In this document: positions 1 to 43,222 of the stretch, piece after piece | How positions within the stretch are numbered: position 1 is the first letter of the stretch | Layout of the letters: each line of letters begins with the position of its first letter | Source of the DNA: Saprospiraceae bacterium | Lineage (GTDB): Bacteria; Bacteroidota; Bacteroidia; Chitinophagales; Saprospiraceae | Assembly (NCBI GenBank): GCA_016711125.1 | Contig: JADJTQ010000010.1 | Location: 20,298-84,297 of the forward strand | Length of the DNA stretch: 64,000 bases | Direction: 5' to 3' | Translations under genes and position numbers: made by a program | Notes under the pieces: model-generated | What the model saw: the letters and a program-made list of their open reading frames with translations, nothing else | The model's database searches: none | What the model was told of the DNA's origin: nothing

Positions 1-965
1 CAGAGTTTTTGTCATCAGGGCATCCACCAATCCTAAAATCCATTGATCTTAATAATCCTAATTCTGACAATTTCAAAGTCTCTTGGCATTGGGCCTCCAG
101 CTTCCGGCACCGGGCATCCAACATCCAGCTTCCGACTCCCGGCATTAATCCTCTCGCAGAGTTTGCAGAGATCGCAGAGTTTTTGTCATCAGGGCATCCA
201 CCAATCCTAAAATCCATTGATCTTAATAATCCTAATTCTGACAATTTCAAAGTCTCTTGGCTTTGGGCCTCCAGCTTCCGGCACCGGGCATCCAACATCC
301 AGCTTCCGACTCCCGACATTAATCCTCTCGCAGAGTTGGCAGAGATCGCAAAGTTTTTGTCATCAGGGCATCCACCAATCCTAAAATCCATTGATCTTAA
401 TAATTAATAATCCTAATTCTGACAATTTCAAAGTCTCTTGGCATTGAGCCCCCAGCTTCCGGCACCGGGCATCCAACATCCAGCTTCCGACCCCCGATAT
501 TAATCCTCTCGCAGAGTTGGCAGAGATCGCAAAGTTTTTGTCATCAGGGCATCCACCAATCCTAAAATCCATTGATCTTAATAATTAATAATCCTAATTC
601 TGACAATTTCAAAGTCTCTTGGCATTGAGCCTCCAGCTTCCGGCACCGGGCATCCAACATCCAGCTTCCGACCCCCGATATTAATCCTCTCGCAGAGATC
701 GCAGAGTTTTTTTTTCGTCAAGTATCCCAACTAGTCCTAAAATCCATTGGTTCCCAATAATCCTAATTCTGACAATCACAACGTCTCTGGCATTGGGCTT
801 TCAACTTCCGGCACCGGGCATCCAACATCCAGCTTCCGACTCCCGGCATTAATCCTCTCGCAGAGTTTGCAGAGATCGCAGAGTTTTTGTCATCAGGGCA
901 TCCACCAATCCTAAAATCCATTGATCTTAATAATCCTAATTCTGACAGTTACAACGTCCTTGGCA
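1..965. repeat. Tandem satellite, ~175-bp unit, about 5.5 copies. Unit starts at 1, 175, 349, 530, 702 and 879. Truncated by the window start.
   Basis: Direct reading: cagagtttttgtcatcagggcatccaccaatcc... recurs at spacings of 174/174/181/172/177 bp. Copy 5 is diverged. ORFs 9..407 and 381..572 simply read through the repeats. Confidence 0.92.
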
Positions 966-1121
966 TCTGACTTCCGACTTCCAACCTTATTTTCAAACGG
1001 AGGAATAGATCCGCCGCTACACTTCTACTCGAGATCTCTCCCGAAGATGTTGGGATCGCTGTCAGGACCTTGCTCTCTTCCGACTCCGGTCTTCCGTCTT
1101 CGGGCTTCCGGCTCATTTTCC
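966..1121. repeat. Degenerate 7-bp-periodic tract (cttccga/cttcggg type) containing the conserved 21-mer aatagatccgccgctacactt at 1004-1024.
   Basis: Heptad phasing is visible: cttccga ctccggt cttccgt cttcggg cttccgg. The 21-mer is identical to 11087-11107. Confidence 0.75.
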
Positions 1122-2687
1122 TTACCCCACGACCCTTCCCTTCAAAACCGGTCTGCGCTCGCTTTTGTCTTGCTTGCCCACACTGTTGATCATCGTCAGT
1201 TCAAGATCACGGTCACTAAATTTAAAGGTCAGCTGATCACCATGGATACCTTCCAGCATTTTGATATTTAATTGGAGAGTATCTTGTTCTACCCAGGTTG
1301 CGGTGGCTCCAATTTTTGAAGGATGATCGGTCCGGAAAAATACCGGAAATGGATATTTGATGGTTGCTGGATTGGTAAGCCATCTTTCAATCCCTGATGT
1401 AATTTTCTGATCTCCCTCCGATGTTTTAAACACAAAATCAAGTGACTGATTACCCGCAAGTATTTGGATGGAAGACACGTCAAATTGATTTTTATCCAGA
1501 TGAATTGTTTTACTCATTATGGTGCTGTTTGCAAAACTTGCATTTCCTTTTGGGATAGCAAGACTCAGCGTTTTTTGCAATTGCTGGAGATCCTTAAATA
1601 ACCCTGTTTTTTCGGGCAGTCTGCTGGCAGAGATCCCAGGCACCAAGTGATCAAAAATAATTTGCATGGATTTGCCCATGTCCCAACTCTCACTGGTGGC
1701 GGCAATCACGATATCCTGTTCAGGCATTACAATGCAGTATTGGCCGTAAGCGCCATCACCCCGGTAGACCCCGGGCATCTTACACTGCCAGAACTGATAG
1801 CCATAGCCGTTTGACCATTCGGTACTGCCCGGATTGCTAGGAGTATGCCAGGCAGTGGCTTCCGTGACCCATTGTTTGGGGACGACCTGTTTGCCCTGCC
1901 ATCGACCCATTTGCAGATAAGTGTGGCCAAAACGAGCAATTGCCTCAGTGTTGACCCTGAGACCAAAACCACCCGCATTGATTCCTTCCGGAGATTTCAC
2001 CCAGTCATATTGGCCAATACCCAAGGGCTCAAATAGCCGGGTTTTTAAATATGCTTCCAAGGTCTGACCCGATTGCTTTTGTACGATAGCACTCAACATA
2101 AATGTGGCTCCGGTATCATATAGGAATTTTGTGCCCGGAGCATGGACCACCGGTGTTTCCAAAAAGGAATGAATCCAGGGCTCGTGGGGCTTACTCAGTA
2201 CCCGTGAAAAACTATCTACATCATGCCCGGTATTCATGGTAAGCAAATGCTTTACCGTCATCTTTTGCAGATTAGGATCCTGATATTGTCCTGCAAGCTC
2301 CGGAAAAAAGGACAGCACTTTGGCATCTATATCAAGCAGACCTTCATCCATAGCAAATCCAACAGCTGTGCTGGTAAAACTTTTGGAAAGCGAATAGAGT
2401 GTGTGCACATACTCTGGCTTAAAAGGATCCCACCAACCTTCGGCGATTACCTGACCATGCCTCATAATCATCAAACTATGCCATTCATAATCACAAGAAT
2501 TGGCCGAGTTTAGCAGATTAATGATTGCCTGCGAATCGACGCCTTGCGACTCTGGGCTGACCCTCATCAATGACTGGCCTATCCCTGATGTTGACTTACA
2601 CGCATGTAATAAAGGTCCTAACCCAATCATTAGACCAGCACCTGCTAGCTGATTGAGGAAATGTCGTCGATTCATTAGATTCATCAT
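1122..2687 (-). CDS. Serine hydrolase, beta-lactamase / class C-related family, with a twin-arginine-like signal.
   Basis: S-x-x-K motif (SLSKSFT). N-terminus MMNLMNRRHFLNQLAGAGLMIG. The ORF-track start at 2756 is a TTG lying in the repeat tract, so the first ATG at 2687 was chosen. Confidence 0.85.
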   Translation of the reverse strand: MMNLMNRRHFLNQLAGAGLMIGLGPLLHACKSTSGIGQSLMRVSPESQGVDSQAIINLLNSANSCDYEWHSLMIMRHGQVIAEGWWDPFKPEYVHTLYSLSKSFTSTAVGFAMDEGLLDIDAKVLSFFPELAGQYQDPNLQKMTVKHLLTMNTGHDVDSFSRVLSKPHEPWIHSFLETPVVHAPGTKFLYDTGATFMLSAIVQKQSGQTLEAYLKTRLFEPLGIGQYDWVKSPEGINAGGFGLRVNTEAIARFGHTYLQMGRWQGKQVVPKQWVTEATAWHTPSNPGSTEWSNGYGYQFWQCKMPGVYRGDGAYGQYCIVMPEQDIVIAATSESWDMGKSMQIIFDHLVPGISASRLPEKTGLFKDLQQLQKTLSLAIPKGNASFANSTIMSKTIHLDKNQFDVSSIQILAGNQSLDFVFKTSEGDQKITSGIERWLTNPATIKYPFPVFFRTDHPSKIGATATWVEQDTLQLNIKMLEGIHGDQLTFKFSDRDLELTMINSVGKQDKSERRPVLKGRVVG

Positions 2688-2760
2688 TTTTAGTAATACG
2701 GCAAAAGACAGGACTTGTACCAGCGAATTATCTTGATTTAATTGAAACAGCTCCAAGCAT

Positions 2761-2870
2761 TTCTTCAGTCATCAGTCATCAGTTCTTCAGTCTTCAGTTC
2801 TTCAGTTCTCAATTCTCAGTTCTCAGTTCTCAGTTCTTCAGGCTTCGGTCTTCAGTCATCAGTCATCGGC
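2761..2870. repeat. 7-bp-periodic intergenic tract (tcagtca / tcagttc, ~15 units).
   Basis: Read directly. It lies between the enolase-family stop (2882) and the hydrolase start (2687). It generates phantom ORF 2742..3005. Confidence 0.9.
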
Positions 2871-2881
2871 TTTCCCATCCG

Positions 2882-4045
2882 CTACTCAAAAAACGGCATA
2901 CCCGGTGTCGCATACTTTTTCATGGCCTCAAAATTAATATCGACACCGATACCTGGTGTTTCGGAGACCGTGATAAAGCCATTTTCGATTTTGAGTTTAT
3001 CGTAGATCACGATTTCATCAAACATCGGATCGGTGTGATAATAAATCTGCCATTCCAGAATCATGAAATTGGGCACCGTAGCACATACATGACAAGATGC
3101 CATCGCTCCTAAAAAGGTGGCGACCATGTGAGGAGCAAATGGCACATAGTAGAGATTAGCTAAATTGGCAATGCGCTGCGCTTCTCCTAATCCTCCGGCT
3201 TTCTGCAAATCCGGCATGATAATATCAACCGCTCCCTTTTCCAGCATCTCCCGGAAACCATAAGCGAGATAGACATTTTCCCCGGCACAAATCGGTGTGC
3301 TGGTAGAGGCAGTAATTTTCTGATAAGCATCGATATTTTCAGCCGGTATCGGTTCTTCCAGCCACATTAGATTAAGCGGTTCAATCATTTTGGCCACACG
3401 CTCCCCCGTTGTCGTATCATACCTACCATGCATGTCGGCGCAGATATCAATATAAGGACCAACCGCCTCCCGAGCAGCCGCCAGTTGATTGTACATCCGT
3501 TCCAATTCTCCAGGGCTAGCCGTCCAATTATATAAATCATACTTTGCCGGATCCGAGCGCTGATCCAAGTCAAACTTGATGGCGGTAAATCCCATGTCTT
3601 TGGCGGTTGATGCGTTTTCCGCAAAATCTTTTGGCGATGGCAGATTATTCTGATAAAGCGCCGTATCGCAATAAACCCTGATTTTATCCCGGAACTTACC
3701 ACCCAACAATTGATAAACCGGTAGCCCCAATGATTTGCCGGCCAAATCCCAAAGAGCCGATTCAACTGCCGACATAGTAGCTACATACATACCTGACTGG
3801 CCACCACTAAAAACCCCGGCACGACGGATATCTTCAAAAAGTCGGTGTACCGCCAAAGGGCTCTTATCTTTCAGCATCCGGGCAAATCGCTTGACCAGGT
3901 GATAACCCCCTATTGTAGCATCGACACCCTCGCCACATCCGTAAATATCCTGATTGGTCTCGATTTTTACAAAAAGTCCATTGCCACCCCGGATAAATCC
4001 GCATTTAAGATCCGTGATTTTGAGATCGGATGGGCTAGATGTCAT
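2882..4045 (-). CDS. Enolase-superfamily enzyme (mandelate racemase / muconate lactonizing family, sugar-acid dehydratase-like).
   Basis: Full-length 387-aa ORF with typical MR/MLE N-terminal capping and barrel-domain sequence (KITDLK..., GxGEG, DxH...E...E pattern). Confidence 0.85.
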   Translation of the reverse strand: MTSSPSDLKITDLKCGFIRGGNGLFVKIETNQDIYGCGEGVDATIGGYHLVKRFARMLKDKSPLAVHRLFEDIRRAGVFSGGQSGMYVATMSAVESALWDLAGKSLGLPVYQLLGGKFRDKIRVYCDTALYQNNLPSPKDFAENASTAKDMGFTAIKFDLDQRSDPAKYDLYNWTASPGELERMYNQLAAAREAVGPYIDICADMHGRYDTTTGERVAKMIEPLNLMWLEEPIPAENIDAYQKITASTSTPICAGENVYLAYGFREMLEKGAVDIIMPDLQKAGGLGEAQRIANLANLYYVPFAPHMVATFLGAMASCHVCATVPNFMILEWQIYYHTDPMFDEIVIYDKLKIENGFITVSETPGIGVDINFEAMKKYATPGMPFFE

Positions 4046-4166
4046 GGGAGTTTTTGGAGAGCTTCCTGATATTGGCTACCAAATCCAGCGGCCAAAGGAA
4101 ATGCTCCCATCATGGCACTTTTCTTTAAAAAAGATCGTCGGGCATTTTTTTGCATATCAATTGTTT

Positions 4167-5147
4167 TTACCAGGTTCTTGATTCAAGTAATTTTTTTATT
4201 TGCTCTTTCGATACGGGCAATTCATCGATGTGGTCATTTAACCATTGAGAAAAATCTTTTTCAATTTCTGCTGACCAGCGATTATCTATTTCTGCTGCAC
4301 TATATTTTTTTTCTCGAATCCGGGAATGTCCAAACATATCCCGAAGTCGCACCACTTCTGATGTAGTCACCACTTTTTCCGCCAGTTGGGGTGGTATAAA
4401 AATAACACCACCATCTCTACCCAATACTACGTCGCCTGGCATGACCATCACTTTCCCAATCCTGGTTGGTGTGTTCAATCCCACCAAAGTTGTATTAAGA
4501 CGGTTCTCGGGATTATTTAAGTGATGGGATGGATGATAACTTCTCACGAAGGAGGTAAATCCTTCGATATCCCGAAGACCATTGATATCACGAATAGCTC
4601 CATTGTATACAATCCCATTTCCTGAGTTAGTGAAAATCGCATTACCGACATTATCACCAATCGTAGGGCCGTCTACGTGAGCTTCAAAATTATCGCCCAC
4701 ATACACATCTCCGGGCACCAGCATGGCAACCGGCCAGGCATTCTGCGATTTTATTCGACCATCCTGATCATGACCCTTGTCATCAATGGCTCGCTGTACA
4801 TCTGGTCTCCCCGGCATAAAAGTAGCCGTGAGAGCTCTGCCAACGAGGATATTCTCCGGGTGAATCACAAGCCAGTTTTCTTCATACTGGTAGTGATAAC
4901 CCTCATTGCGCAAGACAGCCCAGGCTTCCTCGTGAGTGACCAACTTCATGCGTTCAATGATTTCGTCAGAAACTTTAGGCCTACCATCTTCAAATCGTTC
5001 ACCTTTCCACTCCCGGGTGAGATGAAGGAGATATTCTTTTGAAATCTGTTGGCCAAAGGTACTTGCACCCATCGCTATACAAATACCCATAATAAAAATT
5101 CTATTGCAAAGCATCTGTGTTACATTTTCAGGTAAAGAATTGGTCAT
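4167..5147 (-). CDS. RraA-family / HMG-aldolase-like protein with an N-terminal signal peptide and extension.
   Basis: RraA-like core (PGDVYVGD...GDNVGNAI...NGAIRDINGL). Hydrophobic N-terminus NRIFIMGICIAMGASTFGQ. Confidence 0.7.
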   Translation of the reverse strand: MTNSLPENVTQMLCNRIFIMGICIAMGASTFGQQISKEYLLHLTREWKGERFEDGRPKVSDEIIERMKLVTHEEAWAVLRNEGYHYQYEENWLVIHPENILVGRALTATFMPGRPDVQRAIDDKGHDQDGRIKSQNAWPVAMLVPGDVYVGDNFEAHVDGPTIGDNVGNAIFTNSGNGIVYNGAIRDINGLRDIEGFTSFVRSYHPSHHLNNPENRLNTTLVGLNTPTRIGKVMVMPGDVVLGRDGGVIFIPPQLAEKVVTTSEVVRLRDMFGHSRIREKKYSAAEIDNRWSAEIEKDFSQWLNDHIDELPVSKEQIKKLLESRTW

Positions 5148-5327
5148 TAATCTATTGACAGGCTTAAGTTAATCATTCTCTCGAATCTACCACAAAACAC
5201 TGCTCATTGATTTTGGGTGCACTATGAATAGTATTCAAGCCGGTCATCAATATGATCATTAGAACATGTCGAATCAAATCCTGAGGACTTTAAGAGAAGT
5301 CAATCTTAAGAAATCTATTAATGCAGT

Positions 5328-5948
5328 TTAAAAGTTGGAATGGTGGTCACGAGGTACATTCGTACTGTAGTAATCATCAATGTCGTATGTTCCTGAAAAA
5401 GCCACAATCCCTTTTATCAAATCTTTGGGTAATTTCCTTGTATCAAGATATCTCACTTCCATAGCAACCAAAGTAGCCAGATGGGCACCTGATGAAAAGC
5501 CCCCAACCACAATTTTTGTACGACCAATTCCATAGGCATCAGAGTTGACGAACAACCATTGAATGGCATCAGCAATATCTTCAATATGAGCGGGATGCTG
5601 CACACCTTCTTTTCAGGTGGTATCTCTCCAAATCTTCGAGCTTAGTCTATGACCAACCGATGCCACTATGATACCCTGCTTTGCCAATTGTCTGGCCAAT
5701 TCCATCTCGACATCCTTATCACCATGAGACCAGGCTCCTCCTCCTATCCAAACCAATAATGGGCTATCCTTTAACCCTTTATTGCCAACAAGATTTAAGG
5801 TTTAACAACTATCGCTCTTCAGCTGACCATATGGCAAATCATTGATTTCCCATAGTTCTACCTCCTGACCCTGAGCACCGGAACTTACGAGTAAAATAAG
5901 GAGGCTCGCCACCAGCTTGATCATATTTAACCATGGAAAACTATTCAT
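5328..5948 (-). pseudogene. Alpha/beta-hydrolase (esterase/lipase type) pseudogene with two in-frame nonsense codons.
   Basis: One frame from ATG 5948 reads MNSFPWLN...DSC*TLNL...WIGGGAWSHGD...RDTT*KEGVQHPAHIEDI...GGFSSGAHL. The stops are TAA (5802-5804) and TGA (5613-5615). Out-of-frame remnants of the C-terminal part continue to about 5190. Confidence 0.75.
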
Positions 5949-6052
5949 GATAATATGTCTTTTCTCAAATTGTGTTTTGAAATAGTCTTAGACAAGTGGT
6001 TCTCAAATATTTGCACAATACCCTCTAATTTTGTTCGAAACGAACGACTCCA

Positions 6053-6475
6053 CTATCCATATTTATCGGTCATGTACTCATAGGCTGATTTGCTGAGCTC
6101 CTCCAAAATATCCCATTCTACATCTTCCAGTTTATTAATGTACAGGCATGATTTTCCGGTTTTAAATTTTCCCAGTTTCTCCATCAGATTATCATAGCGA
6201 TCAAATCCCGGCACAATGTACAATGTCAGGTTTTGTGCTCGGGGAGAAAAACCAACCTTCATAGAATCCCCTTCCCTCCCACTCTCATACCTATAATGAT
6301 AGTCGCCAAAACCCACAATATTGGTGCCCCACATTTTAGGCGCAGCACCACTTATCTTTTGCATCATTGAGACGATTTTTCTTGCATCTTTTTGCTTCTG
6401 CCCGTCCGTGATCGAACTTAAAAACTCTTCGACACTATTGCTGGTTTCAACCGTCTTGTTTTTTGCTTTATCCAT
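6053..6475 (-). CDS. DUF1801 (YdhG-like) domain protein.
   Basis: 140-aa ORF with the characteristic C-terminal GKSCLYINKLEDV motif region. Confidence 0.7.
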   Translation of the reverse strand: MDKAKNKTVETSNSVEEFLSSITDGQKQKDARKIVSMMQKISGAAPKMWGTNIVGFGDYHYRYESGREGDSMKVGFSPRAQNLTLYIVPGFDRYDNLMEKLGKFKTGKSCLYINKLEDVEWDILEELSKSAYEYMTDKYG

Positions 6476-6552
6476 TGGTTCTGCATTTCCTCCTAATGAT
6501 CCATGTGTTGATTAATAACCAAAAATAAAAATAACCACTTCTAAAACAAATT

Positions 6553-6602
6553 CTCAAATAACTACTGCTTTCACTGACTCAAATAACTGCTGCTTTCACT
6601 GA
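6553..6602. repeat. 25-bp tandem duplication (ctcaaataactRctgctttcactga x2).
   Basis: Read directly in the gap between 6475 and 6620. Confidence 0.85.
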
Positions 6603-6619
6603 TTCTGAATTATACTCAA

Positions 6620-7442
6620 CTACCAATCCTTTTTCTTGAGAATAAAGTAACTCAGCCCCAAATTTACTGCGAGCCATCCCAACACAATCACTGTCTCCCG
6701 GATACCAACATATTCCTGAAATTCCCTTAGAAAATATTTAGGAAAGGGTACCGGAATCAAATTATAGAGACTGCGAACCGGTAATAAACTGACAGAACTT
6801 CGAATTGTATCATAAACATGAGGAAAATTCTCTAAGAAAATGCCCAAAAAAGGCTCGAACATAATGGTGTATAAAAACAAACCAACAATCACTAAACCTG
6901 CCTTCGGAATTAACAAAGTTATCCAAAAACAGAATGAAAGATAAGTCAGCAAAACCAGAAAATAAGCCAATACGAAATCAAGCGATTGTAAAACATAGGG
7001 ATAGCCTTCTTCATTTGAGTAGAGACCACCCATCACCAGTCCCAAAATAAATAAAAAGATGGTTGCAAAAAACACTCAGCACTAAAATATGGATCAATTT
7101 TGATAACCAAAACTCCGATTTACTGAGGCCATCAATAATATTTTGTCGCAAGGTTCGATAACTGTCATCATTAGCTACCGAAATCACCACAATAAATCCC
7201 AATATTATCTTACAGAAGGAGCCTAAATAAGCGCTATTCTGCCAAACATCGGGAAAATCATAAAGTGGAATCAGGGTAGGATCCAGACCGTTAAAATCGG
7301 CTCCCTGCCTTTTTAAAAACTGCAGAAATAATAAACCACCACAACACACTAATGCCACTGCCAATAAATACATAGTCACCAACACCCAGTATGGCCGGTA
7401 ATTTTTCATTTTCCACCACTCTATTTGCCAAAGTCTAATCAT
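6620..7442 (-). CDS. ABC-2 type transporter permease. The frame is broken as sequenced.
   Basis: ORFs 7011..7442 and 6620..7075 join as ...LVLSVFFATIFLF... if the A6 run at 7067-7072 gains one base. Multi-pass hydrophobic protein that overlaps the ATPase stop. Confidence 0.75.
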
Positions 7443-8325
7443 GCTCTGCTAAAATTCGTAAAAACTGCTCCTCCAGATTTCCGCTTTTTTCACGTAAAAG
7501 TGTCAGAACAACGCCATGACTAATCAGATATTGATTGAGTTGCTCCGTCGTAATGTCTGACGCGCTCACTATGAGACGGTCGTCTTTTTGCTCGATTTTT
7601 TGAAAATTCCCAAAACCAGTGAGGACCCTGGTTAGTTGTGGCATATTCCGTGATGCCAGCTCTATGGTCGATTGATTGGTCAATGCATCTTTTACACTGC
7701 CCTGGTAGAGTTTCTGGCCCTTACCTAGTACCATAAAATGCGAACAAACACGTTGTACCTCGTCCAATAAATGGCTAGCCAAAATAATCGTCTTACCTAT
7801 TCCCGCTATTCTGCGAATGAGGTTTCTGATCTCAACGATTCCTTGCGGGTCCAATCCATTGGTCGGCTCATCCAGGATTAAGACACTGGGATCGGACAAT
7901 AGGGCAGATGCGATGGCAAGTCTTTGCTTCATGCCCAGTGAATATGTTTTGAAAGGGTCATTCTTACGATCCCATAAATCAACAAGCTTCAGTACCGGTT
8001 CGATTGCAGATCGGTCAACATCTTTTATCCTTCCTGCAATCGCTAAATTTTGGTATCCGGTCAGATAAGGATAAAAACATGGGGTTTCCAGGATTGCTCC
8101 AATTTTTTTACGGACATTTTTTTGCTCATTTTCGCCAAACCAGCTAAAAGTGCCTGAGGTCGGCTGCACGACCTGCAGTAAGAGAGCGAGGGTCGTCGTC
8201 TTGCCGCTTCCATTAGGACCTAAAAACCCAAACACCATGCCCTCTTCAATAGAAAGATCCAGTCCATCCAATGCATGGATTTTGCCATAAAATTTTGTGA
8301 GTTGTTTGGTGTCTAAAATTTGCAC
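7435..8325 (-). CDS. ABC transporter ATP-binding protein.
   Basis: Walker A GPNGSGKTT, signature LGMKQRL, Walker B LILDEPTNGLD. Confidence 0.92.
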   Translation of the reverse strand: MQILDTKQLTKFYGKIHALDGLDLSIEEGMVFGFLGPNGSGKTTTLALLLQVVQPTSGTFSWFGENEQKNVRKKIGAILETPCFYPYLTGYQNLAIAGRIKDVDRSAIEPVLKLVDLWDRKNDPFKTYSLGMKQRLAIASALLSDPSVLILDEPTNGLDPQGIVEIRNLIRRIAGIGKTIILASHLLDEVQRVCSHFMVLGKGQKLYQGSVKDALTNQSTIELASRNMPQLTRVLTGFGNFQKIEQKDDRLIVSASDITTEQLNQYLISHGVVLTLLREKSGNLEEQFLRILAEHD

Positions 8326-8337
8326 AATTACTTAGGT

Positions 8338-8940
8338 TTATTCTTCAATAATCACCTTGCTCAAGGTATCCTGATTGAGGCTATCCACAGAAATACTGTC
8401 TTTTGTTGCATCATCCTCCTCTCTTTGTATACCTACCAATGAAAATACATCCAAAAAATCTTCCCCGATACTGGTTGAATCAGCAGATAATGTTTGGATT
8501 AATTGATTGAGGCTCCATATATTAATCTGACCTACGATGTCAGCAAGGTAATATTCGTATTTCGTGGGCACCATGAGAATGGACTGGTTCGGGTCCTCTT
8601 TACCAAGAAAATAAATTCGCCGGCCGTTCAGATTAACGGTGGCATATTCCTCAAAATGCTCTTCAGCCTGGAGTCTTAATTTTAAATCCACCACATCATC
8701 CACTCCAAATTCATCTTTCATACGGTATACCACCAATTTCCTGACATTCCTGATTAATTGGTAATAGTCCGGATTGTCCTTCAAATTAACAGCACGCATA
8801 ATGCCGGGATAAAAGAAAAAGGTTCTGTCTACCCCATCCCCATCTTTCAACTCTGAAAGGACTTCGCTAGTAGTATAATGCTCAGATTGGCAAGCTATTA
8901 TGCTCAGGACGATTAGAATTGGAAAAATGATATTTTTCAA
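8338..8940 (-). CDS. Hypothetical lipoprotein.
   Basis: Lipobox LSIIAC. Co-directional and tightly spaced with the ABC genes. No recognised domain. Confidence 0.55.
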   Translation of the reverse strand: MKNIIFPILIVLSIIACQSEHYTTSEVLSELKDGDGVDRTFFFYPGIMRAVNLKDNPDYYQLIRNVRKLVVYRMKDEFGVDDVVDLKLRLQAEEHFEEYATVNLNGRRIYFLGKEDPNQSILMVPTKYEYYLADIVGQINIWSLNQLIQTLSADSTSIGEDFLDVFSLVGIQREEDDATKDSISVDSLNQDTLSKVIIEE

Positions 8941-9023
8941 AATATGCTGTTAGCATTTAGATTTCCAATATAGTATTTCTCAGACATCGGGTTGACAGAA
9001 ATCGACCGACATCAATGAATGGA

Positions 9024-9689: not shown

Positions 9690-9743
9690 TCTACGACCTA
9701 GAGTCCAACACTGGTGCTATATTTCGACAGAATCAGGTACTAC

Positions 9744-10982
9744 CTACTGAAGGGCCTCTTCCAATCGATGTTTCCAATTTGGAAAGGGATCTACAATTCC
9801 CCTATCGGCATGTCTATGTACTACAGAATTAAAGTAATAGGGCAAATCAACGAGATTCGATTGATAATAGTTTTTATATTTTTCTCTACCCTGATCTCTC
9901 ACGATTCCGACTATTTCTTCAACTTTTTTCAGCTGCTGCTCCAAGGAACCACTGTCGTTGTCAAACGTCCAGACATAGGTGGCATGCGAATTAATGAGCT
10001 CCCAAATAAAATGATTCTTTTGATCACCTGCTACCACAAATAAAAATCCAAAGTGGGGAGCCAAAGTAATCAGTATTCGCTGATTTGACAATTGTTTTCG
10101 ACCAGCGAGATATTCCAATTGTTTGCGATTGCGTACGACGCCCAGGTCGGTGAGACTCTGGATAATATCCAATGCATTCTGATGAAAAAGATTAGCATCC
10201 GGCTCATCATAATATTCGTTAAAGATTTCATCCGAATTGAATAGATGTTTATCAATCGCAATCACTTTGGGTGCCTTTCTCAATCCCAGAATTCTGGTAT
10301 TCCGGAGAGTGCCAACCATCTTTTCGTTGATGAGATCAATCTGCTTTGAAGTACAGATTAATTTGCGAATCCGATCTTCATTTATAGTAAGTTTAACCAA
10401 TACATCTAATGTTTTCTTTCCTAAAGCCTTTGAAAAATAACCCTTGATAAATTCAAATTCAGGCAAGATGTGAGTGTTATCGATCCGTAATTCAACCGGT
10501 TCACCCAGGGCAGGTAAATCGGTCCAAAACTCAACTCCTCCCAGTACAAACTTTACTGAATTGAAGGAGACCTTTAGTTGATATTGATAATGTTGCACCT
10601 TTTGTCCAGGTATATACACCTCCTCGCTATCGATAATGTAGGGTAACAAGGCACTTTTCTTATAGGCTGATACAAACCCGGCAAAGTAATACCAGTTGAG
10701 TTTCTCAAATTCGATCGATCTCACACCTTGTTTTAGTTGTTGGGTATTAAATAAGTGTGTATCCATGGGAAAATAGTCAAGCACTCCAACTACCAAATGC
10801 TGCTGGTCTCGTTCATATGATTTAAGCTTAATCTTCCAGGAGTACTCTATTCCGGAATGAATCGTAAAATGCTCCGCTGGCAAGTTGGTATCAGTCCACT
10901 CCAAGACAAATCCTGGGGTGAGAGAGACACCCACCGATGACACGATAATGATGCGAGTCCGCTCTTGATTGTGGGTCATCAA
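9744..10982 (-). CDS. Hypothetical protein, 412 aa, no recognised domain.
   Basis: Long uninterrupted ORF with normal composition. I can recognise no motif. Confidence 0.6.
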   Translation of the reverse strand: MMTHNQERTRIIIVSSVGVSLTPGFVLEWTDTNLPAEHFTIHSGIEYSWKIKLKSYERDQQHLVVGVLDYFPMDTHLFNTQQLKQGVRSIEFEKLNWYYFAGFVSAYKKSALLPYIIDSEEVYIPGQKVQHYQYQLKVSFNSVKFVLGGVEFWTDLPALGEPVELRIDNTHILPEFEFIKGYFSKALGKKTLDVLVKLTINEDRIRKLICTSKQIDLINEKMVGTLRNTRILGLRKAPKVIAIDKHLFNSDEIFNEYYDEPDANLFHQNALDIIQSLTDLGVVRNRKQLEYLAGRKQLSNQRILITLAPHFGFLFVVAGDQKNHFIWELINSHATYVWTFDNDSGSLEQQLKKVEEIVGIVRDQGREKYKNYYQSNLVDLPYYFNSVVHRHADRGIVDPFPNWKHRLEEALQ

Positions 10983-11086
10983 ATGATATGTTTATACTCC
11001 AAATATAAGTGAATAACTCCTGTGAGGAGAGGCTGGTGGGACTTTCGACTTCTCCTGACGATCTCCTTTTCTTGGCGATCCGGCGA

Positions 11087-11287
11087 AATAGATCCGCCGC
11101 TACACTTTTGGGCATCCCGGCATCGGACATTCCGGCATCGGACATCGGACTTCGGACATTTCGGCTTCGGGCATCGGGCATCAGGCTGCGGACATCGGAC
11201 ATCGGACTTCGGACATCGTGCTTCGGACATCAGACATCGGGCATCGGACATTCCGGCATCCGGCATCGGGCTTCGGACATCGGACAA
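11087..11287. repeat. Conserved 21-mer followed by a 7-bp-periodic tract (catcgga / cttcgga, ~25 units).
   Basis: Read directly. The tract is stop-free in most frames and produces phantom ORFs 10891..11202, 10979..11308, 11009..11371 and 11022..11357. Confidence 0.9.
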
Positions 11288-11367
11288 CGTGCTTTGCCAT
11301 CCTTCCACAATTCCATCTTTCCATATCCCTACATTACTCTATTTTTACCGGATTTAATACTGATGTT

Positions 11368-12798
11368 ATGAACAGACCCAGTCCAGCAATGCCAACCTAC
11401 ACTCGTGAGGAGATCGACAATACTTTTATTATTCTAAAGGCCAACCAATTTGCGGTAGGATCAACGAATGCCCGTGAACGTATTGAAAAATTAAAAAAAT
11501 TTCACCGGATCTTTCTCCAATATCGTCAGGCCATTAAGGAGGCCATGTTTCTTGATTTTCGCAAGCATGCATTTGAAGTAGACCTCACAGAAATCTATAC
11601 AGTCACCAGCGAATTAAAACATACAAAAAGAAATTTACGGCGATGGATGGGCAAACACAGCACCCCAACTCCACTGGCACTTATCGGCTCCAGATCCTAT
11701 ATTCATTATGAAGCCAAGGGGGTGGTTTTGATCATTTCGCCCTGGAATTTTCCTGTGACCCTCACTTTTGGACCCTTGATAGCAGCTATTGCTGCTGGAA
11801 ACACCGTGATAGTAAAACCTTCTGAGCAAACACCAAATACGGCGCTTGTTATGCAACAAATTGTAGAAGAAGTATTTGAACCAGATGAGGTCGTCTTGTT
11901 GCAGGGCGGTATTGAGACTTCAAAAATTCTTTTGTCTTTACCTTTCAATCATATCTTTTTTACGGGGTCTTCGAGAGTAGGTAAAATTGTAATGGAATCA
12001 GCTGCAAAACATCTAACCAGCGTAACCCTCGAATTGGGAGGAAAGTCACCAACGATAGTTGACGAGACGGCAAATATTGACCAGGCAGCCCGGACCATCA
12101 CCTGGGTTAAGTGCATCAACAATGGTCAAATATGTATCGCACCGGATCATGTCTGGGTCTATGAAAAAGTCAAGGAAAAATTTATCATCTCGGTAAATCT
12201 ATATTTGAAAAAGTATTATAGCGAAGATGCTCACAAGGAACCATCCTACGCCCGGTTAGTCAATGAAAATCATTTCAAAAAGGTCAATGAGCTTTTTAAA
12301 AATGCGATCGAAAAAGGCGCTAAAGTAAGAGCAGGCGGCCAATCAAAAGGAGAAGAAAATTATATGGACCCTACTGTTCTGACCGACATTCCAGAAGGAA
12401 CCGATATTATGAAAGAAGAAATCTTTGGTCCGGTTTTACCGGTTCAATCATTTCAAAATATTTCCGAATTAATCACCCAACTCAATAAAAAAGAAAAACC
12501 TCTTGCTCTTTATATTTATAGCCGTAACCAAAAAAACATCCGTCAAATTATCGAAGGTACCCGGACCGGTGGCACTTGCATTAATAGCTGTGGTATTCAT
12601 TTCTTTAATAATAATCTGCCTTTTGGAGGTAGCAATTTTAGCGGCATAGGCAAAGGTCATGGTTGGTTTGGATTTGAGTCTTTTTCAAATGCCCGAGCGG
12701 TATATAACCAGTTCATGCCTAGTGCATTGGAAATACTTGTACCACCATATAATCGCTTCAAGCAAAGAATTATCGATTTGGCGATTAAATATTTGTAG
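11368..12798 (+). CDS. Aldehyde dehydrogenase (ALDH3-like family).
   Basis: ELGGKSP, NNGQICIAPDH (catalytic Cys context), EEIFGPVLP. The ORF-track start at 11218 lies in the repeat tract, so the first plausible ATG at 11368 (MNRPSPAMPTY) was chosen. Confidence 0.9.
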   Translation: MNRPSPAMPTYTREEIDNTFIILKANQFAVGSTNARERIEKLKKFHRIFLQYRQAIKEAMFLDFRKHAFEVDLTEIYTVTSELKHTKRNLRRWMGKHSTPTPLALIGSRSYIHYEAKGVVLIISPWNFPVTLTFGPLIAAIAAGNTVIVKPSEQTPNTALVMQQIVEEVFEPDEVVLLQGGIETSKILLSLPFNHIFFTGSSRVGKIVMESAAKHLTSVTLELGGKSPTIVDETANIDQAARTITWVKCINNGQICIAPDHVWVYEKVKEKFIISVNLYLKKYYSEDAHKEPSYARLVNENHFKKVNELFKNAIEKGAKVRAGGQSKGEENYMDPTVLTDIPEGTDIMKEEIFGPVLPVQSFQNISELITQLNKKEKPLALYIYSRNQKNIRQIIEGTRTGGTCINSCGIHFFNNNLPFGGSNFSGIGKGHGWFGFESFSNARAVYNQFMPSALEILVPPYNRFKQRIIDLAIKYL

Positions 12799-12883: not shown

Positions 12884-12922
12884 GCTCCATTCCATATTGC
12901 TCCATGCTCCATACTCCATGCT
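12884..12922. repeat. Short 7-bp-periodic tract (gctccat type).
   Basis: gctccat tccatat tgctccat gctccat actccat, between convergent genes. Confidence 0.6.
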
Positions 12923-12923
12923 A

Positions 12924-30069: not shown

Positions 30070-30156
30070 CTGACCAAGCCGGGCTAGCCAGTCCTGTCGG
30101 GATTGGAAATCCCATCCTGTTTCAATCCGAAATCTGAAATCAGCAATCAGAAATCT
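30070..30156. repeat. Composite ~90-bp element: imperfect hairpin module plus an aatcNga heptad run. Copy 1.
   Basis: About 75% identical to 31259-31352. It lies directly 3' of a minus-strand gene. Confidence 0.75.
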
Positions 30157-30158: not shown

Positions 30159-31083
30159 TTAGGCTTGGGATCCTTTCTTTTTAATTATCTGTAAAATGTA
30201 CTTCCAGCCATTCATCACCGCTCCATACGAGTTGAATAATATCATCTTCGAAAAAATACGGTTTGTGGGTAAATTGATGTTACCTACGGGGCCCGGAAAT
30301 GGCGAATCGTCAGCATTGTCGTCCAACTGCCAACCACCAGTCAACCCAACACATTGATACGGGGCCTTGAACTTTTAGACTATCTGCAATGGATAATACA
30401 CCACCAATATTTAGTTCTTTGGTAAGCGTCAATGCGCCCTTGATCACCGTATTTCCATTTTTGTAGACTTCCAAGGCGTTGGATCGATTGTTGGCGGCTG
30501 TACCATTTCCGATTACGAAGAGGTAGTCGGTAGCGACGTAGGGAAGTGGATTATTGGAAGTTAGTGTATCATTAAATTGACCAAGAACAGTCTCCAAATA
30601 CGATCTTGTGATATTGTGCCTTCCAAAAACAGTGGATATCGACCCATGTGCTATATTATTTGTACCCCATGCAGTAGTATAACCGTTATCGGTAAAATTT
30701 GAATTTCCCCATATTTGAGAGTGCTCTCCCCCAGACCCGTCAAATATCCTATTTCCGCTCCCAAAGGCGATGGAACTATAACCAGCAATTCGATTATCGT
30801 CTCCAAAAGCAGCTGAGAATATCCCTCCAGCTATGTTATTATGTCCAAAGGCTGCAGAGTAATTTCCAATGCTATCTTTATCCCACTCTGTACTATTGAC
30901 ACCGCCCGCCCTAAAAGCAGCTTTATCGGGATACCACATCATGCGATTGCCTTTGCCCGAAGCTGGAGGATTTGCGGGCATCGGCAATGAAGCAGGTCCT
31001 TCAAACAGGACACTTTGACCGAATGATAAAGTTGTAAAGCAAAGACAAAATGCTATCGTCATAATTTTGAATTGATTTTCCAT
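30159..31083 (-). CDS. Secreted protein with YadA-head/Hep_Hag-like short repeats. There is a possible frame break near 30361-30364.
   Basis: Signal peptide. Repeats: AFGHNNIAGG.. AFGDDNRIAG.. AFGSGNRI.. WGNSNF.. WGTNNIAHG. ORF 30310..31083 may continue into ORF 30159..30344 (...GPVYQCVGLTGGWQLDDN). Confidence 0.55.
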
Positions 31084-31258
31084 TTTTGTACGGTTGTTTC
31101 TAGTTTTCGGAATTTACTTATTTATATGAATCCCTGTAATTTACGTCAATTTTGGAGGATGCAACGGGCACAAGGCCTGAAGAGGTGTCACCAATATCTC
31201 CCAGCTTTAAAGCTGTACAGAGGTGCGACAACTCCCTTAACGATTTTCCGTTTTAATC

Positions 31259-31352
31259 TAACCAAGCCGGGCTTGCCAATCCCTGCGGGCTTGGGAATTC
31301 CTTATCGGTCCTCGAATCCAAATCAACAATCAGAAATCAGAAATCAACAATC
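31259..31352. repeat. Composite ~90-bp element: hairpin module plus an aatcaRa heptad run. Copy 2.
   Basis: ccaagcc...ggcttgg stem, then aatccaa atcaaca atcagaa atcagaa atcaaca. It lies directly 3' of gene 31351..32153. Confidence 0.75.
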
Positions 31353-32153
31353 ACTTCGGCGCCACCGGCTCTCCATAAATAAAATCATCCATCACCGATA
31401 CATCAACACTACCTCCGTCATCAGGTCCGAGGGTGGCATTGCCGTAGGTGATCCGCACATGATGCACGATGGCTTCTTTAAATAAAACTCCTAAAAAAAC
31501 ATAGCCATCATTCATGGTTGCGGTTTTGTAAGAGCCCAATGATTTTTCATTAATATCAAAATATTCAAAGGCGGTATTTTCTACCTTGTCCACATCGATA
31601 TAGACGGCACCAAAACCTTCGACCACGGCCTTGTTGGTAGAGCCCGGGATATAGAAACGTAAATCCACAATATTACTGCCCGTTGGCGAAAAAACCTTCT
31701 CTCCACTAAATGGAGGAAATATCCGGGTATACTGTGGATTGATTTGTCCGAAAGACATTGGGGTGTTCGTTGGATTTGTCTTTGAAGCACTCACCTGAAT
31801 TTCACCACCTGGCGAGCTAAATACTGCGCCCCTTGCTCTTGTACCTGTATTTGTATTAAAAAAATCCAGCGGATAACCATTGGGCGAAGAAAATTGATCC
31901 GGCACACCATCCCAATTAATTTCCCTTCGACCATATGCTTGCGAGCCAGCTGTGCCTCCATTGTTAGTCCCCAACAGTGACCGGTACTCGTCAATACCGG
32001 ATTGGATATTGCCGGCAACAGAAATTATTTTTCTACCGGATCATCTACCGGGTCATTGGAAGAGTCCTCTTTGGAGCAACTAACTAAAATAGCAATTAGT
32101 GAAGCACAAATGATTGCCCAACTGCTGGTCTTTTTTATGAAATTCAGTTTCAT
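31351..32153 (-). CDS. Hypothetical lipoprotein. The frame is broken as sequenced.
   Basis: ATG 32153 gives MKLNFIKKTSSWAIICASLIAILVSCSKE...DPVEK. It joins IISVAGNIQSGIDEYRSLLGTNNGG (ORF 31351..31974) if the T5 run at 32028-32032 gains one base. Confidence 0.6.
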
Positions 32154-40074: not shown

Positions 40075-40146
40075 GGAATTTGGAATTTGAAATTCCCCTA
40101 AAAGCACCAAGTACCAAATTACAAGCACCAAAGCCGAGACCAAAGA
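40075..40146. repeat. Palindrome ggaatttgaaattcc (40082-40096) followed by a 7-bp-periodic ccaaNNN tract.
   Basis: Read directly between convergent genes. Confidence 0.55.
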
Positions 40147-40160: not shown

Positions 40161-41174
40161 TCAGACCGTGATACTTTCCCGAATAAAAGTACCCCAGGTT
40201 AAATTCATTTTTCCAGCCTGGTGCGCATCAGCACGCTCAATGGCGGTCTGGGCGGCATGTTCAACTACCCATTCAAAATTGTCATCGCCAACAGAAGTTG
40301 CTTCTGCATCAGGTGCAGGATTACAAAAATCGATGGCATAGGGAATTCCGTTTTTTACCGCAAATTCAGCGGTATTAAAATCATAACCAAGAGCTTCATT
40401 GATTTTAAAAACAAATCCCTCCACCTTTTTTAATAAACCTTTGGGATATTCAGGGGTCTCTCTCAGGTACCTTAAGTGATGAGGGTTTCTTGGTTCATAG
40501 GGCATGATGTGCACATATTTTCTGCCAATACAATAGCAACGAAAATAAAAATCAAAATCGATGTTCTCCTGGAGCATCATCACCAGTCGGTCGGTCTCGT
40601 TGTACGCTTTAAATAATTCATCAAAATCATGCACTTTATAGACACTTTTCCATCCGCCACCAGAATGAGGTTTCATGTATAATGGAAAACCACCAAGATA
40701 TTCAACCATTTTTTCCCACTCAAGTGGAAATTTCAAATTGCGAAAAGAATTGCCACTGGTATCATGCGGCATTTCTTTGGAGGGTAATAAGACGGTCTTT
40801 GGGACCGGAACCCTGATTTTTTCAGCAAGGACGTTATTAAAGAACTTTTCGTCGGCACTCCACCAGAAAGGATTATTAATAACAGCAGTATCACACGCAG
40901 CGGCATTTTTCAAATAGGCTCTGTAAAACGGCACGTCTTGGGAGATACGATCTATAAGTACCGCATAGCCACTGCTTTGCGCTTGCATTACTTCTTCTAC
41001 ATGGGCAAGTTCTGCATGGATTCCTTTTATCTTTTTGGAGTTGATCCGGTCAACAAAAGCCTGAGGAAAGGTTTGCTCCTGTCCAAAGAGAATTCCAATT
41101 TTTTCATAATTTTTCCGATTTGGCACTGCAAAAGTAAGCTTTTTCGACGCAATGCTCGTATACCAAAAAAGCAT
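40161..41174 (-). CDS. ATP-grasp fold protein (RimK / glutathione-synthase-like ligase family).
   Basis: FPLYMKPHSGGGWKSVYKV and downstream ATP-grasp-like blocks. The family assignment is approximate. Confidence 0.65.
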   Translation of the reverse strand: MLFWYTSIASKKLTFAVPNRKNYEKIGILFGQEQTFPQAFVDRINSKKIKGIHAELAHVEEVMQAQSSGYAVLIDRISQDVPFYRAYLKNAAACDTAVINNPFWWSADEKFFNNVLAEKIRVPVPKTVLLPSKEMPHDTSGNSFRNLKFPLEWEKMVEYLGGFPLYMKPHSGGGWKSVYKVHDFDELFKAYNETDRLVMMLQENIDFDFYFRCYCIGRKYVHIMPYEPRNPHHLRYLRETPEYPKGLLKKVEGFVFKINEALGYDFNTAEFAVKNGIPYAIDFCNPAPDAEATSVGDDNFEWVVEHAAQTAIERADAHQAGKMNLTWGTFIRESITV

Positions 41175-41271: not shown

Positions 41272-43181
41272 ATGACTAGTAAAGTAAATCCTCATTCGTT
41301 ATTTACCGAATTCGACATCTCCCTGTTTCAGGGAGGAAAACACTTTCGTCTCTATGAGAAATTTGGTGCCCACATGATGACACATAATGGTGAAGAAGGT
41401 GTTTACTTCGCCGTATTTGCACCTAACGCCGACCGGGTCGAGGTTGTCGGTAGTTTTAATGATTGGAAGGGACAAGGATATAGTCTTTTTGTTCGATGGG
41501 ATACATCTGGAATTTGGGAAGGTTTCATCCCCGGGGTCAAAATGGGCGACCTTTATAAGTATCAAATACACCCTAAGGTAGGCCATCAAATACTCACGAA
41601 GACCGATCCATACGGGTTTTATCAGGAGGAAGCTCCCAAGACGGCCAGCATTGTGTGGTCCCTGGAACACAAATGGAAAGATAAGCAATGGCTAAAAATC
41701 AGGCATCAACACACCAGTCTGGAAGCCCCATACAGCATATATGAAGTGCATAGTACATCATGGAAAATGCATCCTAATGGTGATCTGTATTCGTACGACG
41801 AACTCATCGAACACCTGGTACCCTATGTCAAAGACATGGGTTTTACTCATGTGGAATTTTTACCGATCATGGAGCATCCTTTTGGAGGCTCTTGGGGTTA
41901 TCAGGTCAACGGTTTTTTTGCTCCAACCAGTAGACAAGGTGAGCCGCAAGGATTTATGCGTCTGGTAGATGCGTTTCATGCCGAAGGTATCAGTGTTATC
42001 CTCGATTGGGTGCCCTCACACTTCCCTTCTGATGGTCACGGCCTGGCAACCTTCGATGGTACGTGCGTTTATGAACATCCCGACCCACAAAAAGGATATC
42101 ATCCAGATTGGAAAAGTCACATCTTTAACTATACGAGGGGTGAGGTACGCTCTTTTTTAATATCCAGTGCACTTTTTTGGCTTGAGCAGTTTCATATCGA
42201 CGGGCTGAGGGTAGATGCCGTGGCATCTGTCTTGTATCTGGACTATTCACGAAAAGAAGGTGAATGGAGCCCCAACCAATATGGAGGTAATTATTATCTA
42301 GAGGCCATAGACTTTATCAAGGATTTTAATATGGCTGTATATCAGAATTATCCCGACGTACAAACGATTGCTGAAGAATCGACCGCTTTTCCGATGGTCA
42401 CCCATCCAATTCACTTAGGTGGCTTGGGTTTTGGTATGAAATGGATGATGGGTTGGATGAATGATACACTTGAATATTTCAAGACCGATCCCTTCTTTCG
42501 CCGGTATGAGCAGGGTAAACTGACCTTCAATATGTTTTTTATGCTTATTCAGAGAATTATGTATTGCCACTTTCCCATGATGAGGTAGTACATGGTAAAG
42601 CACCTTTGATTTATAAAATGCCCGGTGACGAATGGCAGAAATTTGCTAATCTTCGGCTATTGTTCGGCTATATGTTTATGCATCCTGGAAATAAATTATT
42701 GTTTATGGGGGATGAATTTGGACAGACGAAAGAATGGAATTATCAGGAAGAACTGCAATGGCATCTTTTACAATATCCATTGCACCAATCTGTGCAAAAT
42801 TTAGTGCGGGATTTAAACCGGCTTTTTACGGGTGAAAAAGCCATCTATGAACAGCAATATCGTCCGCAGGGATTTGAATGGATTGACTTCTCAGATGTGG
42901 TACAATCGGTCATCGTGTTTTTAAGAAAGGGTAAAAAGGAAGAAGACCAAATCTTAGTGATCTGCAATTTCACTCCGGAGACCCGGGAAAAATACGAAAT
43001 CGGAGTTTCGCACAAAGGAGATTGGAAGGTGGTTTTAAACACGGATGATAAAAAATATGGAGGTAGCGGTTTTAACGATGTAAAATCCTGCAAGTCTGCT
43101 AAAAATCCAAGCCATGGAAAAGAACGGTCCATCGTAATTGACCTGCCTCCTCTAGCGATCATTGCTTTGAAGATTGACTAG
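41272..43181 (+). CDS. glgB: 1,4-alpha-glucan branching enzyme GlgB. The frame is broken as sequenced.
   Basis: GSWGYQVNGFFAPTSR, DGLRVDAVASVLYLDYSR, IAEESTAFP, LPLSHDEVVHGK. ORFs 41272..42588 and 42564..43181 join at the T6 run 42535-42540. Confidence 0.93.
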
Positions 43182-43182
43182 T

Positions 43183-43222
43183 TTTTCAGTTTTCAGTCTT
43201 TCAGTTCTCAGTCTTTCAGTCG
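43183..43222. repeat. 7-bp-periodic tract (ttcagtc/ttcagtt type).
   Basis: It follows the glgB stop directly and has the same flavour and orientation as 2761-2870. It generates phantom ORF 43174..43374. Confidence 0.8.

Follow-up and report, generated by a model that had tools for sequence, protein, structure and literature searches.

Tandem arrays of seven-nucleotide units lying between genes have been described in several groups of bacteria. The broadest class is that of the long simple-sequence repeats (LSSRs) of Mrazek et al. (2007), which, as summarized in later papers (PMC4679880, PMC4692102), are tandem units of 5–11 nt in runs longer than expected by chance and mostly located in non-coding DNA. 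According to the same summaries, heptanucleotides are the most abundant LSSRs in most genomes rich in 5–11-nt repeats, and polymerase slippage, related to how long a DNA segment the enzyme holds, was proposed as their source. Hundreds of GGGAATC or GGGGATT arrays were found in Xanthomonas and Nostoc by Rehm et al. (2015). These repeats (GGGAATC in Xanthomonas and GGGGA[T/C]T in Nostoc PCC 7120) are intergenic and imperfect, have from 2 to ~26 copies, show a strong bias to positions adjoining or overlapping the stop codon, and seldom occur between divergent open reading frames (ORFs); they often form inverted pairs, and sister species carry them in the same gaps with extensive variation in length and sequence (PMC4692102). 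MacGregor (2015) reported TAACTGA arrays in marine Beggiatoaceae, Cyanobacteria, and five Bacteroidetes, where long arrays mixed with other heptamers are also present; the repeats of Beggiatoaceae are short (2–6 copies) and lie a few nucleotides from start codons (PMC4679880). The cyanobacterial repeats named STRR are mostly 7 bp long and intergenic, and their function is unknown (PMC2670836). Here, we describe heptamer arrays in a 64,000-nt stretch of a Saprospiraceae bacterium genome (assembly GCA_016711125.1, contig JADJTQ010000010.1, positions 20,298 to 84,297), hereafter called the window, starting from the array at 2761–2870, which was flagged in a first-pass annotation made from the sequence alone. 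With a probability of about 0.68, the tracts of the window are intergenic heptanucleotide simple-sequence repeats (long, STRR-like), driven by slippage and self-renewing in unconstrained DNA.

Period-7 arrays in the window and their placement

All positions refer to the full window. Arrays were called by Tandem Repeats Finder and by a custom scan (28-nt sliding window, self-match of at least 68%), and 30 third-order Markov shuffles of the window served as controls. The intergenic DNA contains about eight discrete arrays of imperfect 7-nt units. The custom scan revealed 10 period-7 segments in the window and none across the 30 shuffles. The other periods from 2 to 13 gave 0–1 segments each, and periods 14 and 15 gave three each; the former is a multiple of 7, and the latter arises where 7- and 8-nt units mix. 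Tandem Repeats Finder called period 7 at 2762–2864 (14.3 copies, 80% matches), 11121–11286 (23.3 copies), 12898–12922, 30124–30155, 31320–31353, 43183–43220, and 1077–1113, the copy number across the window arrays being 3.6–23.3. The lag-7 autocorrelation of non-coding DNA exceeds that of the shuffles by 4.1 standard deviations (z = 4.1) and falls below the mean when the listed tracts are masked; thus, the periodicity is confined to discrete arrays and is not diffuse. Together, the arrays make up ~4% of the DNA lying outside the long-ORF map. The intergenic period-7 tracts reported in the first-pass annotation are therefore real, and no other short period is enriched; to call them strictly periodic was an overstatement, since indels amount to 6–12% and 8-nt units (TCAGTTCT and CATTCCGG among them) are frequent between the 7-nt ones. 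Rfam at the gathering threshold matched no family anywhere in the window, and no tRNAs were found in it.

All arrays of the window are located outside real genes, as the first-pass annotation had proposed. It had also predicted that the tracts seed phantom ORFs, and five such ORFs indeed cover them (921..1271, 10891..11202, 10979..11308, 11009..11371, and 11022..11357). In the related locus L083, a called gene is over-extended by 77 aa through such an array. These phantom ORFs and false N-terminal extensions matter for annotation, and the arrays flag places prone to assembly or frameshift trouble in metagenome-assembled genomes (MAGs).

The flagged array at 2761–2870 begins 15 nt past the TAG stop (2882) of an MR/MLE-family gene and ends ~70 nt ahead of the likely ATG of a beta-lactamase-family gene, whose likely start (ATGATGAATCTAATGAATCGACGACATTTCCTC) is a twin-arginine-type leader. 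In the sense direction it reads as two TGACTGA units, AGACCGA, AGCCTGA, eight units of (A)GAACTGA and close variants, and again two TGACTGA units. On the plus strand, both edges thus consist of TCAGTCA twice, with TCAGTTC(T) variants inside. An identical unit at the edges and a distinct homogenized variant in the middle are the pattern expected of expansion in place. The product of the MR/MLE gene (2882–4045, minus strand) shows 82–90% identity to Saprospiraceae MAG and Flavilitoribacter proteins, and two proteins of the window are 100% identical to entries of a Saprospiraceae bacterium (locus tag IPL46_). A cyanobacterial source, which the heptamers might suggest, is rejected on the strength of these matches. 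A separate observation concerns the 5' part of this gene: at 3980–4156 (minus strand), the N-terminal signal region is apparently frameshifted. The homologues have ~424 aa and start with MQKNARRSFLKK (L081); the window ORF has 387 aa, and its upstream frame reads YAKKCPTIFFKEK...W*. Either the MAG is misassembled here or the gene has a pseudogene-like lesion.

The placement of the arrays was analyzed in related loci. The related set comprises 80 loci (1.28 Mb, mostly Bacteroidota) that surround the MR/MLE orthologue; the placement statistics are based on the window plus 83 related loci, gaps of more than 40 bp, and crude ORF gene maps. These loci have a single gene as their common centre, and some gaps hold several arrays. 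Among short tandem periods, 7 is the most frequent in the 80 loci (25 clusters, versus 11 for period 8), and the array units are unrelated from site to site. Per Mb, the window is ~4 times richer in arrays than the related loci. The 98 convergent gaps hold 14 tracts, the 452 co-directional gaps 24, and the 133 divergent gaps 3. Tracts of co-directional gaps have a median distance of 21 nt from the stop upstream and of 140 nt from the start downstream. Of 27 non-trivial gaps, 13 have a tract no more than 15 nt from a stop codon, versus 3.4 expected when each array is placed randomly within its own gap (p < 1e-5); seven of the eight window arrays abut a stop. Several related loci have arrays behind the stop of the MR/MLE orthologue. 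In L061, 12 copies of the 8-mer TTGAGGAA are followed by 21 units of CTGCCAA/CTGAGGA, and the 8-mer has one mismatch to the final 8 nt of the gene, TTGAGTAA. L044 carries an array directly behind this stop, and in L005, L067, and L078 the arrays form inverted pairs there. The first-pass annotation had found no single transcriptional context, which agrees with these data: the arrays stand behind stops, in co-directional and in convergent gaps, and in one case between back-to-back promoters.

Inverted pairs, consisting of a 7–8-nt array and its reverse complement tens of nucleotides apart, could fold into long imperfect hairpins. They were noted in L005 (~11165–11400), L067 (8175–8303 and ~11200–11290), L021 (1331–1424), L078 (~5090–5290), and L004 (16439–16625); the window contains none. 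A scan of 1–15000 for terminator-like sequences beside the arrays was at the chance level (15 versus 12.7 expected). The sigma-70 promoter scan is inapplicable to Bacteroidota.

Array turnover in relatives and the origin of the arrays

A comparison with the closest loci indicated that the position of an array can persist, and that its units, unit length, copy number, and even its presence change fast. The L081 locus, in which the MR/MLE gene is 98% identical at the amino acid level and 88% at the nucleotide level, has no array behind the MR/MLE stop. Between its MR/MLE and beta-lactamase genes are cation-efflux remnants and MFS genes, which are absent from the window; the 2761–2870 array therefore lies at a gene-loss junction. 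There is no array behind this stop in L082 (90% aa) either. L001 (90% aa) carries a TCAGNNN array directly behind it, in the orientation opposite to that of the window. The array behind the beta-lactamase gene is kept in L081 between conserved flanks, but as different variants (GCCAGGA GTCGGAA GCCAGGA GTCGGAA GTCGGAA) from those of 1077–1113. In L083 (ALDH 84% aa; upstream gene 78% aa), the divergent gap is conserved on both sides of 11110–11330, including the sequence TATATTTG, which we take to fit the Bacteroidetes -7 promoter consensus TAnnTTTG. This gap contains ~17 units of the 8-mer NYTTCCAN in L083; of these, just the last ~4 (11297–11330) are shared by the window, which has, in addition, a non-periodic head and 25 heptamers. 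Positional conservation thus holds in part: two of the three comparable tracts keep their site with other units, and the flagged array is missing in the closest relative.

We infer slippage as the mechanism, and the lack of a required function, from the way the arrays are duplicated internally, from the diversity of their units, from their rapid turnover, and from their occurrence in both transcribed and probably untranscribed contexts; the last point favours an origin at the DNA level. Examples of internal duplication are the edges of 2761–2870 and the 11110–11287 array, where the block CATCGGA CATCGGA CTTCGGA occurs twice at a lag of 57 nt and Tandem Repeats Finder scores period 21 higher than period 7. 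A short seed, often the sequence at or just past a stop codon, would be duplicated in tandem, and the array would then grow, shrink, and homogenize by replication slippage or unequal recombination, one or several units at a time. As 7 is not divisible by 3, such arrays would survive only outside coding sequences. The deletion bias of bacteria would clear other non-functional spacer DNA and leave the self-renewing arrays, pressed between a stop codon and a promoter, 5' untranslated region (UTR), or terminator. The unit sequence would drift freely, giving each array its own flavour, and arrays of the same flavour would be copies with common flanks.

Several facts weigh against this explanation. 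A TCNG core is present on the plus strand in six of eight window tracts (a manual, post hoc count, in which the choice of motif was not rigorously corrected for), and C equals or exceeds G on the plus strand in all scored arrays. The latter agrees with the uniformly negative GC skew of the window; in the other loci, array skew and local skew agree in ~15 of 28 cases (counted by eye), so polarity by replication strand is not treated as general. A stop triplet occurs in the sense direction in 13 of 20 stop-abutting arrays and in the antisense direction in 6 of 20 (~7 by chance; counted by eye), a difference of marginal significance by a rough estimate. Slippage alone leaves the preference for 7 over 5, 6, or 8 unaccounted for, and the locus sample is centred on one gene and non-independent. 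Finally, the two tracts with a kept site are compared across 78–98% protein identity, and keeping the site while replacing the units could reflect selection for having an array and not for its sequence. In that case the Bacteroidota stop-codon arrays of 7–8-nt units would be a selected, sequence-independent device, for which two versions could be considered: an unstructured site where a single-strand-binding protein lands, or a spacer that decides what becomes of the ribosome or RNA polymerase after termination. It would explain why an array is kept at the same gap in diverged relatives despite unit replacement, and why unrelated lineages (L001, L005, L044, L061, L067, L078, and the window) have arrays behind the same orthologous gene; all the same, we consider such a device rather improbable.

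Among the other explanations, the arrays might be cis-acting RNA elements, namely unstructured repeats of 3' or 5' UTRs whose units are each bound by a single-strand nucleic-acid-binding protein with a ~7-nt footprint (of the cold-shock-domain, S1-like, KH, or RRM type). They would adjust the stability of mRNA, the termination or re-initiation of translation, or translation itself in a phylum without Shine–Dalgarno pairing. Most arrays do stand where transcription is expected, behind stops or between co-directional genes, and their sites persist while the sequence changes. As RNA they are predicted to be unstructured: single arrays form no predicted hairpins, the predicted minimum free energy of 2761–2870 is -3.4 kcal/mol per 110 nt, and the plus-strand RNA of 11110–11258 folds worse than 198 of 200 shuffles. 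Similar hypotheses were put forward for TAACTGA repeats (binding of Csp or S1; PMC4679880), STRR (transcript stability or translational coupling; PMC2670836), and Nostoc heptamer repeats (an effect on recF/recO expression; bioRxiv 10.1101/2022.06.06.494920). Such a role seems unlikely here, however: the orientation to the upstream gene is inconsistent (that of L001 is opposite to the window at the same site), the purine fraction of the sense strand averages just 0.55, the longest array, upstream of both divergent promoters, is probably untranscribed, and the closest relative lacks the flagged tract. Moreover, the units of different arrays are mutually unrelated, which makes one specific binder unlikely. 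A structural role of the DNA itself, through curvature, phased protein sites (three units being 21 bp, or two turns), or non-B DNA, is still harder to accept. One long array does occupy a divergent promoter region, some arrays of the related loci are strongly purine/pyrimidine-asymmetric (purine fraction 0.16–0.29 or 0.83–0.88), and G-rich heptamer repeats of other bacteria form G-quadruplexes (PMC4692102); but divergent promoter gaps are the least used context, and the window units have no G-runs, so they cannot form G-quadruplexes. The curvature and helical phasing suggested in the first-pass annotation are unlikely by geometry, since in a 10.5-bp helix consecutive units would be 240 degrees apart and per-unit bends would cancel over three units, and the interspersed 8-nt units break the phasing.

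The arrays might also be tails of small dispersed, possibly mobile composites (a hairpin head plus a heptamer tail, MITE- or REP-like) that have spread among intergenic sites, the flavour marking the element family. Two families with two copies each within 64 kb can be recognized. Non-periodic heads of ~60 nt adjoin both C[AT]TC[CG]G[AG] arrays (1077–1113 and 11110–11287) and share an identical 21-nt core, AATAGATCCGCCGCTACACTT (1004–1024 and 11087–11107), which on the minus strand may fold into a short GC hairpin with UUU after it. The core is also present in L081 amid GGAAG-type heptamers, and in the divergent gap the head with its CATCGGA units resembles an insertion relative to L083. In the second family, a GC-rich flank of ~44 nt is common to both AATCAGA arrays (30070–30113 and 31258–31301). 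Flanks common to arrays of the same flavour indicate that some arrays were copied together with their flanks. On the other hand, no terminal inverted repeats, target-site duplications, or transposase were recognized, the window has just two copies of each family, the 80 related loci lack them, the head core included, and 2761–2870, 12884–12922, and 43180–43222 have no shared head. A metagenome scan with the head core as query (AATAGATCCGCCGCTACAC; another head motif is ACCAAGCCGGGCTWGCCA) gave three matches, all by chance, in unrelated GC-rich or coding sequences. We consider this reading of the arrays rather improbable. Little credence, finally, can be given to the arrays as all-frame stop barriers, in which a TGA, TAA, or TAG in each 7-nt unit would stop the three frames within 21 nt and catch read-through or frameshifted ribosomes at gene ends. 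TGA is found in every sense unit of 2761–2870, 30122–30156, and 31310–31353; in the last of these, unit 1 opens with the stop of the gene itself, and the excess of sense stop triplets mentioned above points the same way. However, 1077–1113, 12884–12922, and 43180–43222 have no sense stop triplet, and one in-frame backup stop suffices, which would make 15–25 units superfluous.

Individual arrays, their flanks and other repeats

The coordinates of the arrays and the associated elements are listed in Table 1.

Table 1. Heptamer arrays of the window and the sequences adjoining them.
Feature	Position	Strand	Units and context
Tandem repeat	1..966		181-bp unit, 5.5 copies, 89% matches; runs past the left window end
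Second head copy with two CTTCCRA units (968–983)	968..1024	-	minus strand GTGTAGCGGCGGATCTATTCCTCCGTTTGAAA, hairpin then UUU
Five-unit array	1077..1113	-	GCCGGAA GCCCGAA GACGGAA GACCGGA GTCGGAA (minus strand)
Flagged array	2761..2870	-	~15 units; the minus strand is the sense of both flanking genes
Non-periodic head adjoining the longest array	11040..11107	-	21-nt core AATAGATCCGCCGCTACACTT; possible small minus-strand hairpin CGGCG/CGCCG
Longest array	11110..11287		~25 units CATCGGA/CTTCGGA/CATCGGG; divergent gap, upstream of both putative promoters
8-mer run beside the longest array	11297..11330		~4 units: TCCTTCCA, CAATTCCA, TCTTTCCA
Short array	12884..12922	-	~4–5 units GCTCCAT (minus strand AGCATGG); convergent gap
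AATCAGA flank, copy 1	30070..30113	-	GC-rich, predicted hairpins
AATCAGA array 1	30122..30156	-	~5 units (minus strand TGATTNC)
AATCAGA flank, copy 2	31258..31301	-	GC-rich, 80% identical to copy 1
AATCAGA array 2	31310..31353	-	~5 units AATCAGA/AATCAAC; minus strand TGATTGT TGATTTC TGATTTC TGATTGT
Weak items	40075..40146		GGAATTT x2.9 (40075–40094); ~4 loose AGCACCA/AGTACCA units (40100–40146)
Array	43180..43222		~5–6 units TTTTCAG/TCTTTCAG/TTCTCAG

Most of these arrays are closely attached to the end of a gene. The five-unit array starts 8 nt past the stop (1122) of the beta-lactamase-family gene, the short array ends 2 nt from the stop (12924) of a metallophosphoesterase gene, and the first unit of the second AATCAGA array opens with the stop TGA of the gene 31351..31974 (minus strand). 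The first AATCAGA array begins a few nucleotides past the TAA TGA that closes a would-be frameshifted extension of the ORF 30310..31083. The first unit of 43180–43222 is directly behind the TAG stop (43181) of a glgB-like ORF and upstream of a bidirectional terminator-like hairpin near 43345–43380; on the minus strand, this array has an ACTGA core, as does 2761–2870. The 40075–40146 region ends 15 nt from the stop of the gene 40161..41174(-). Its period-7 part at 40100–40146, listed as a tract in the first-pass annotation, does contain loose units, but it is weak and lies under the threshold of Tandem Repeats Finder, which calls GGAATTT x2.9 at 40075–40094 instead. Another listed tract, 966–1121, turned out to be periodic only in two parts, 968–983 (two units) and 1077–1113 (five units), with ~90 nt of non-periodic sequence between them. 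The proposed locus-specific flavours are likewise a partial description: units do differ among arrays, but two flavour pairs have common flanking sequence. Paralogous genes were considered as the source of the common AATCAGA flank and rejected, as the adjacent proteins are unrelated and tblastn found no shared C-terminal coding sequence. The gene that separates the two AATCAGA arrays has a next-best homologue of just 39–50% identity.

Each 181-bp unit of the 1–966 repeat contains ~8 heptamers of the CTTCCGG/CATCCAG type, so this repeat is a higher-order amplification of the same material. It looks non-coding, and its units also carry GCAGAGTTT 9-mers; the 9-mer region matches L081 at 8821–8856.

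Two further genes next to the arrays appear to be frameshifted. The product of the ORF 30310..31083 is homologous to YadA-head or tail-fibre-like proteins and has 257 aa, compared to 360–450 aa in the homologues; at 30160–30330 (minus strand), ~55 more codons follow in another frame, up to the TAA TGA at ~30160, and a frameshift near the 3' end of this ORF is likely. The plus-strand ORFs 41272..42588 and 42564..43181 overlap end to end, the second having an alpha-amylase C-terminal domain; this pair looks like one glucan-branching-enzyme-type gene split by a frameshift.

Other repeats were also observed in the window. An inverted repeat, 45510–46193 / 56079–56557 (~680 bp per arm, with a 218-nt core 95% complementary), brackets ~10 kb; it may represent a composite transposon or an invertible segment, or else duplicated regulatory regions. 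A dispersed element of ~60 nt, AATGAGCCAGCAAATCTTCGATTTGCG...GTCCTGACCGCAGCGTCAGGAT, is located at 58193–58254, 58367–58443, and 60349–60417 (at least three copies in 2.3 kb), as well as at 46093–46129; it contains the hairpin CCTGAC-GCAGC-GTCAGG and has no Rfam match at the gathering threshold. A 25-bp unit, CTCAAATAACTACTGCTTTCACTGA, occurs twice in tandem with 96% identity at 6553–6602, between the ORFs 6053..6475(-) and 6620..7075(-). The right end of the window (62587–63642) carries 69/72-bp coding repeats, with a higher-order repeat of 216 bp, which are typical of a leucine-rich-repeat protein.

Comparison with described heptamer repeats

The first-pass annotation had stated that no described element class matches the tracts. 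This is wrong, since STRR (PMC2670836), the Xanthomonas/Nostoc repeats (PMC4692102), and TAACTGA repeats (PMC4679880) have all been described; every property measured here is already published for heptamer repeats, so the statement has no support. The novelty lies in the host lineage, Saprospiraceae, and not in the element class. The phenomenon of heptamer repeats is thereby extended to Saprospiraceae and, more loosely, across Bacteroidota. The presence of its published hallmarks (abutment on stops, avoidance of divergent gaps, turnover of units) in a third phylum strengthens the case for a general mechanism over a lineage-specific regulator.

The window arrays agree with the LSSRs of Mrazek et al. 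in having 5–11-nt head-to-tail units beyond chance, over-represented heptamers, and a non-coding location, and they are no different in kind; Saprospiraceae are not among the genomes discussed in the later summaries of that work. With the Xanthomonas/Nostoc repeats they share the bias to stop codons, the under-representation between divergent ORFs, and the turnover within the same gap, for which the L081 and L083 comparisons, together with the absence of the flagged array in L081 and L082, are the counterpart of the variation between sister species. Inverted pairs, common in Xanthomonas and Nostoc, are found in the related loci L005, L021, L067, and L078, but not in the window. Unlike those repeats, the window units are not G-rich and have no G-quadruplex potential: a G-quadruplex heptamer would require at least four consecutive units with a G3–4 run, and no window array has GGG in each repeat. 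Another difference is that many unrelated units occur in one genome here, whereas one unit dominates there.

With STRR, the arrays share the architecture (7-bp tandem, intergenic, several unit families per genome), but the host, Saprospiraceae, and the units, which are other than STRR1–3, are different, so they do not belong to STRR proper. The STRR of filamentous cyanobacteria reportedly go back to Mazel and co-workers (1990), and their units are said to be CCCCAGT, TTGGTCA, and CAACAGT, which are not the window units; one of them, CAACAGT, would match the window unit TCAGTCA at six of seven positions after rotation.

The closest likeness in sequence is that of 2761–2870 to the TAACTGA repeats. 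Its sense units are of the NNACTGA type (TGACTGA, GAACTGA, AGACTGA), or (T/G/A)(G/A)ACTGA, with 1–2 mismatches to TAACTGA. All five matches to the two-unit, 14-nt query TAACTGATAACTGA with two mismatches fall within this array, versus 0.48 expected window-wide; an exact TAACTGA repeat is not present in the window. Upstream of the next start, the units have the 'forward' orientation; unlike the TAACTGA repeats, which are located close to start codons, the array adjoins the upstream stop and leaves ~70 nt to the start. The array at 2761–2870 is thus a near relative or variant of the TAACTGA repeats and not a member of that group.

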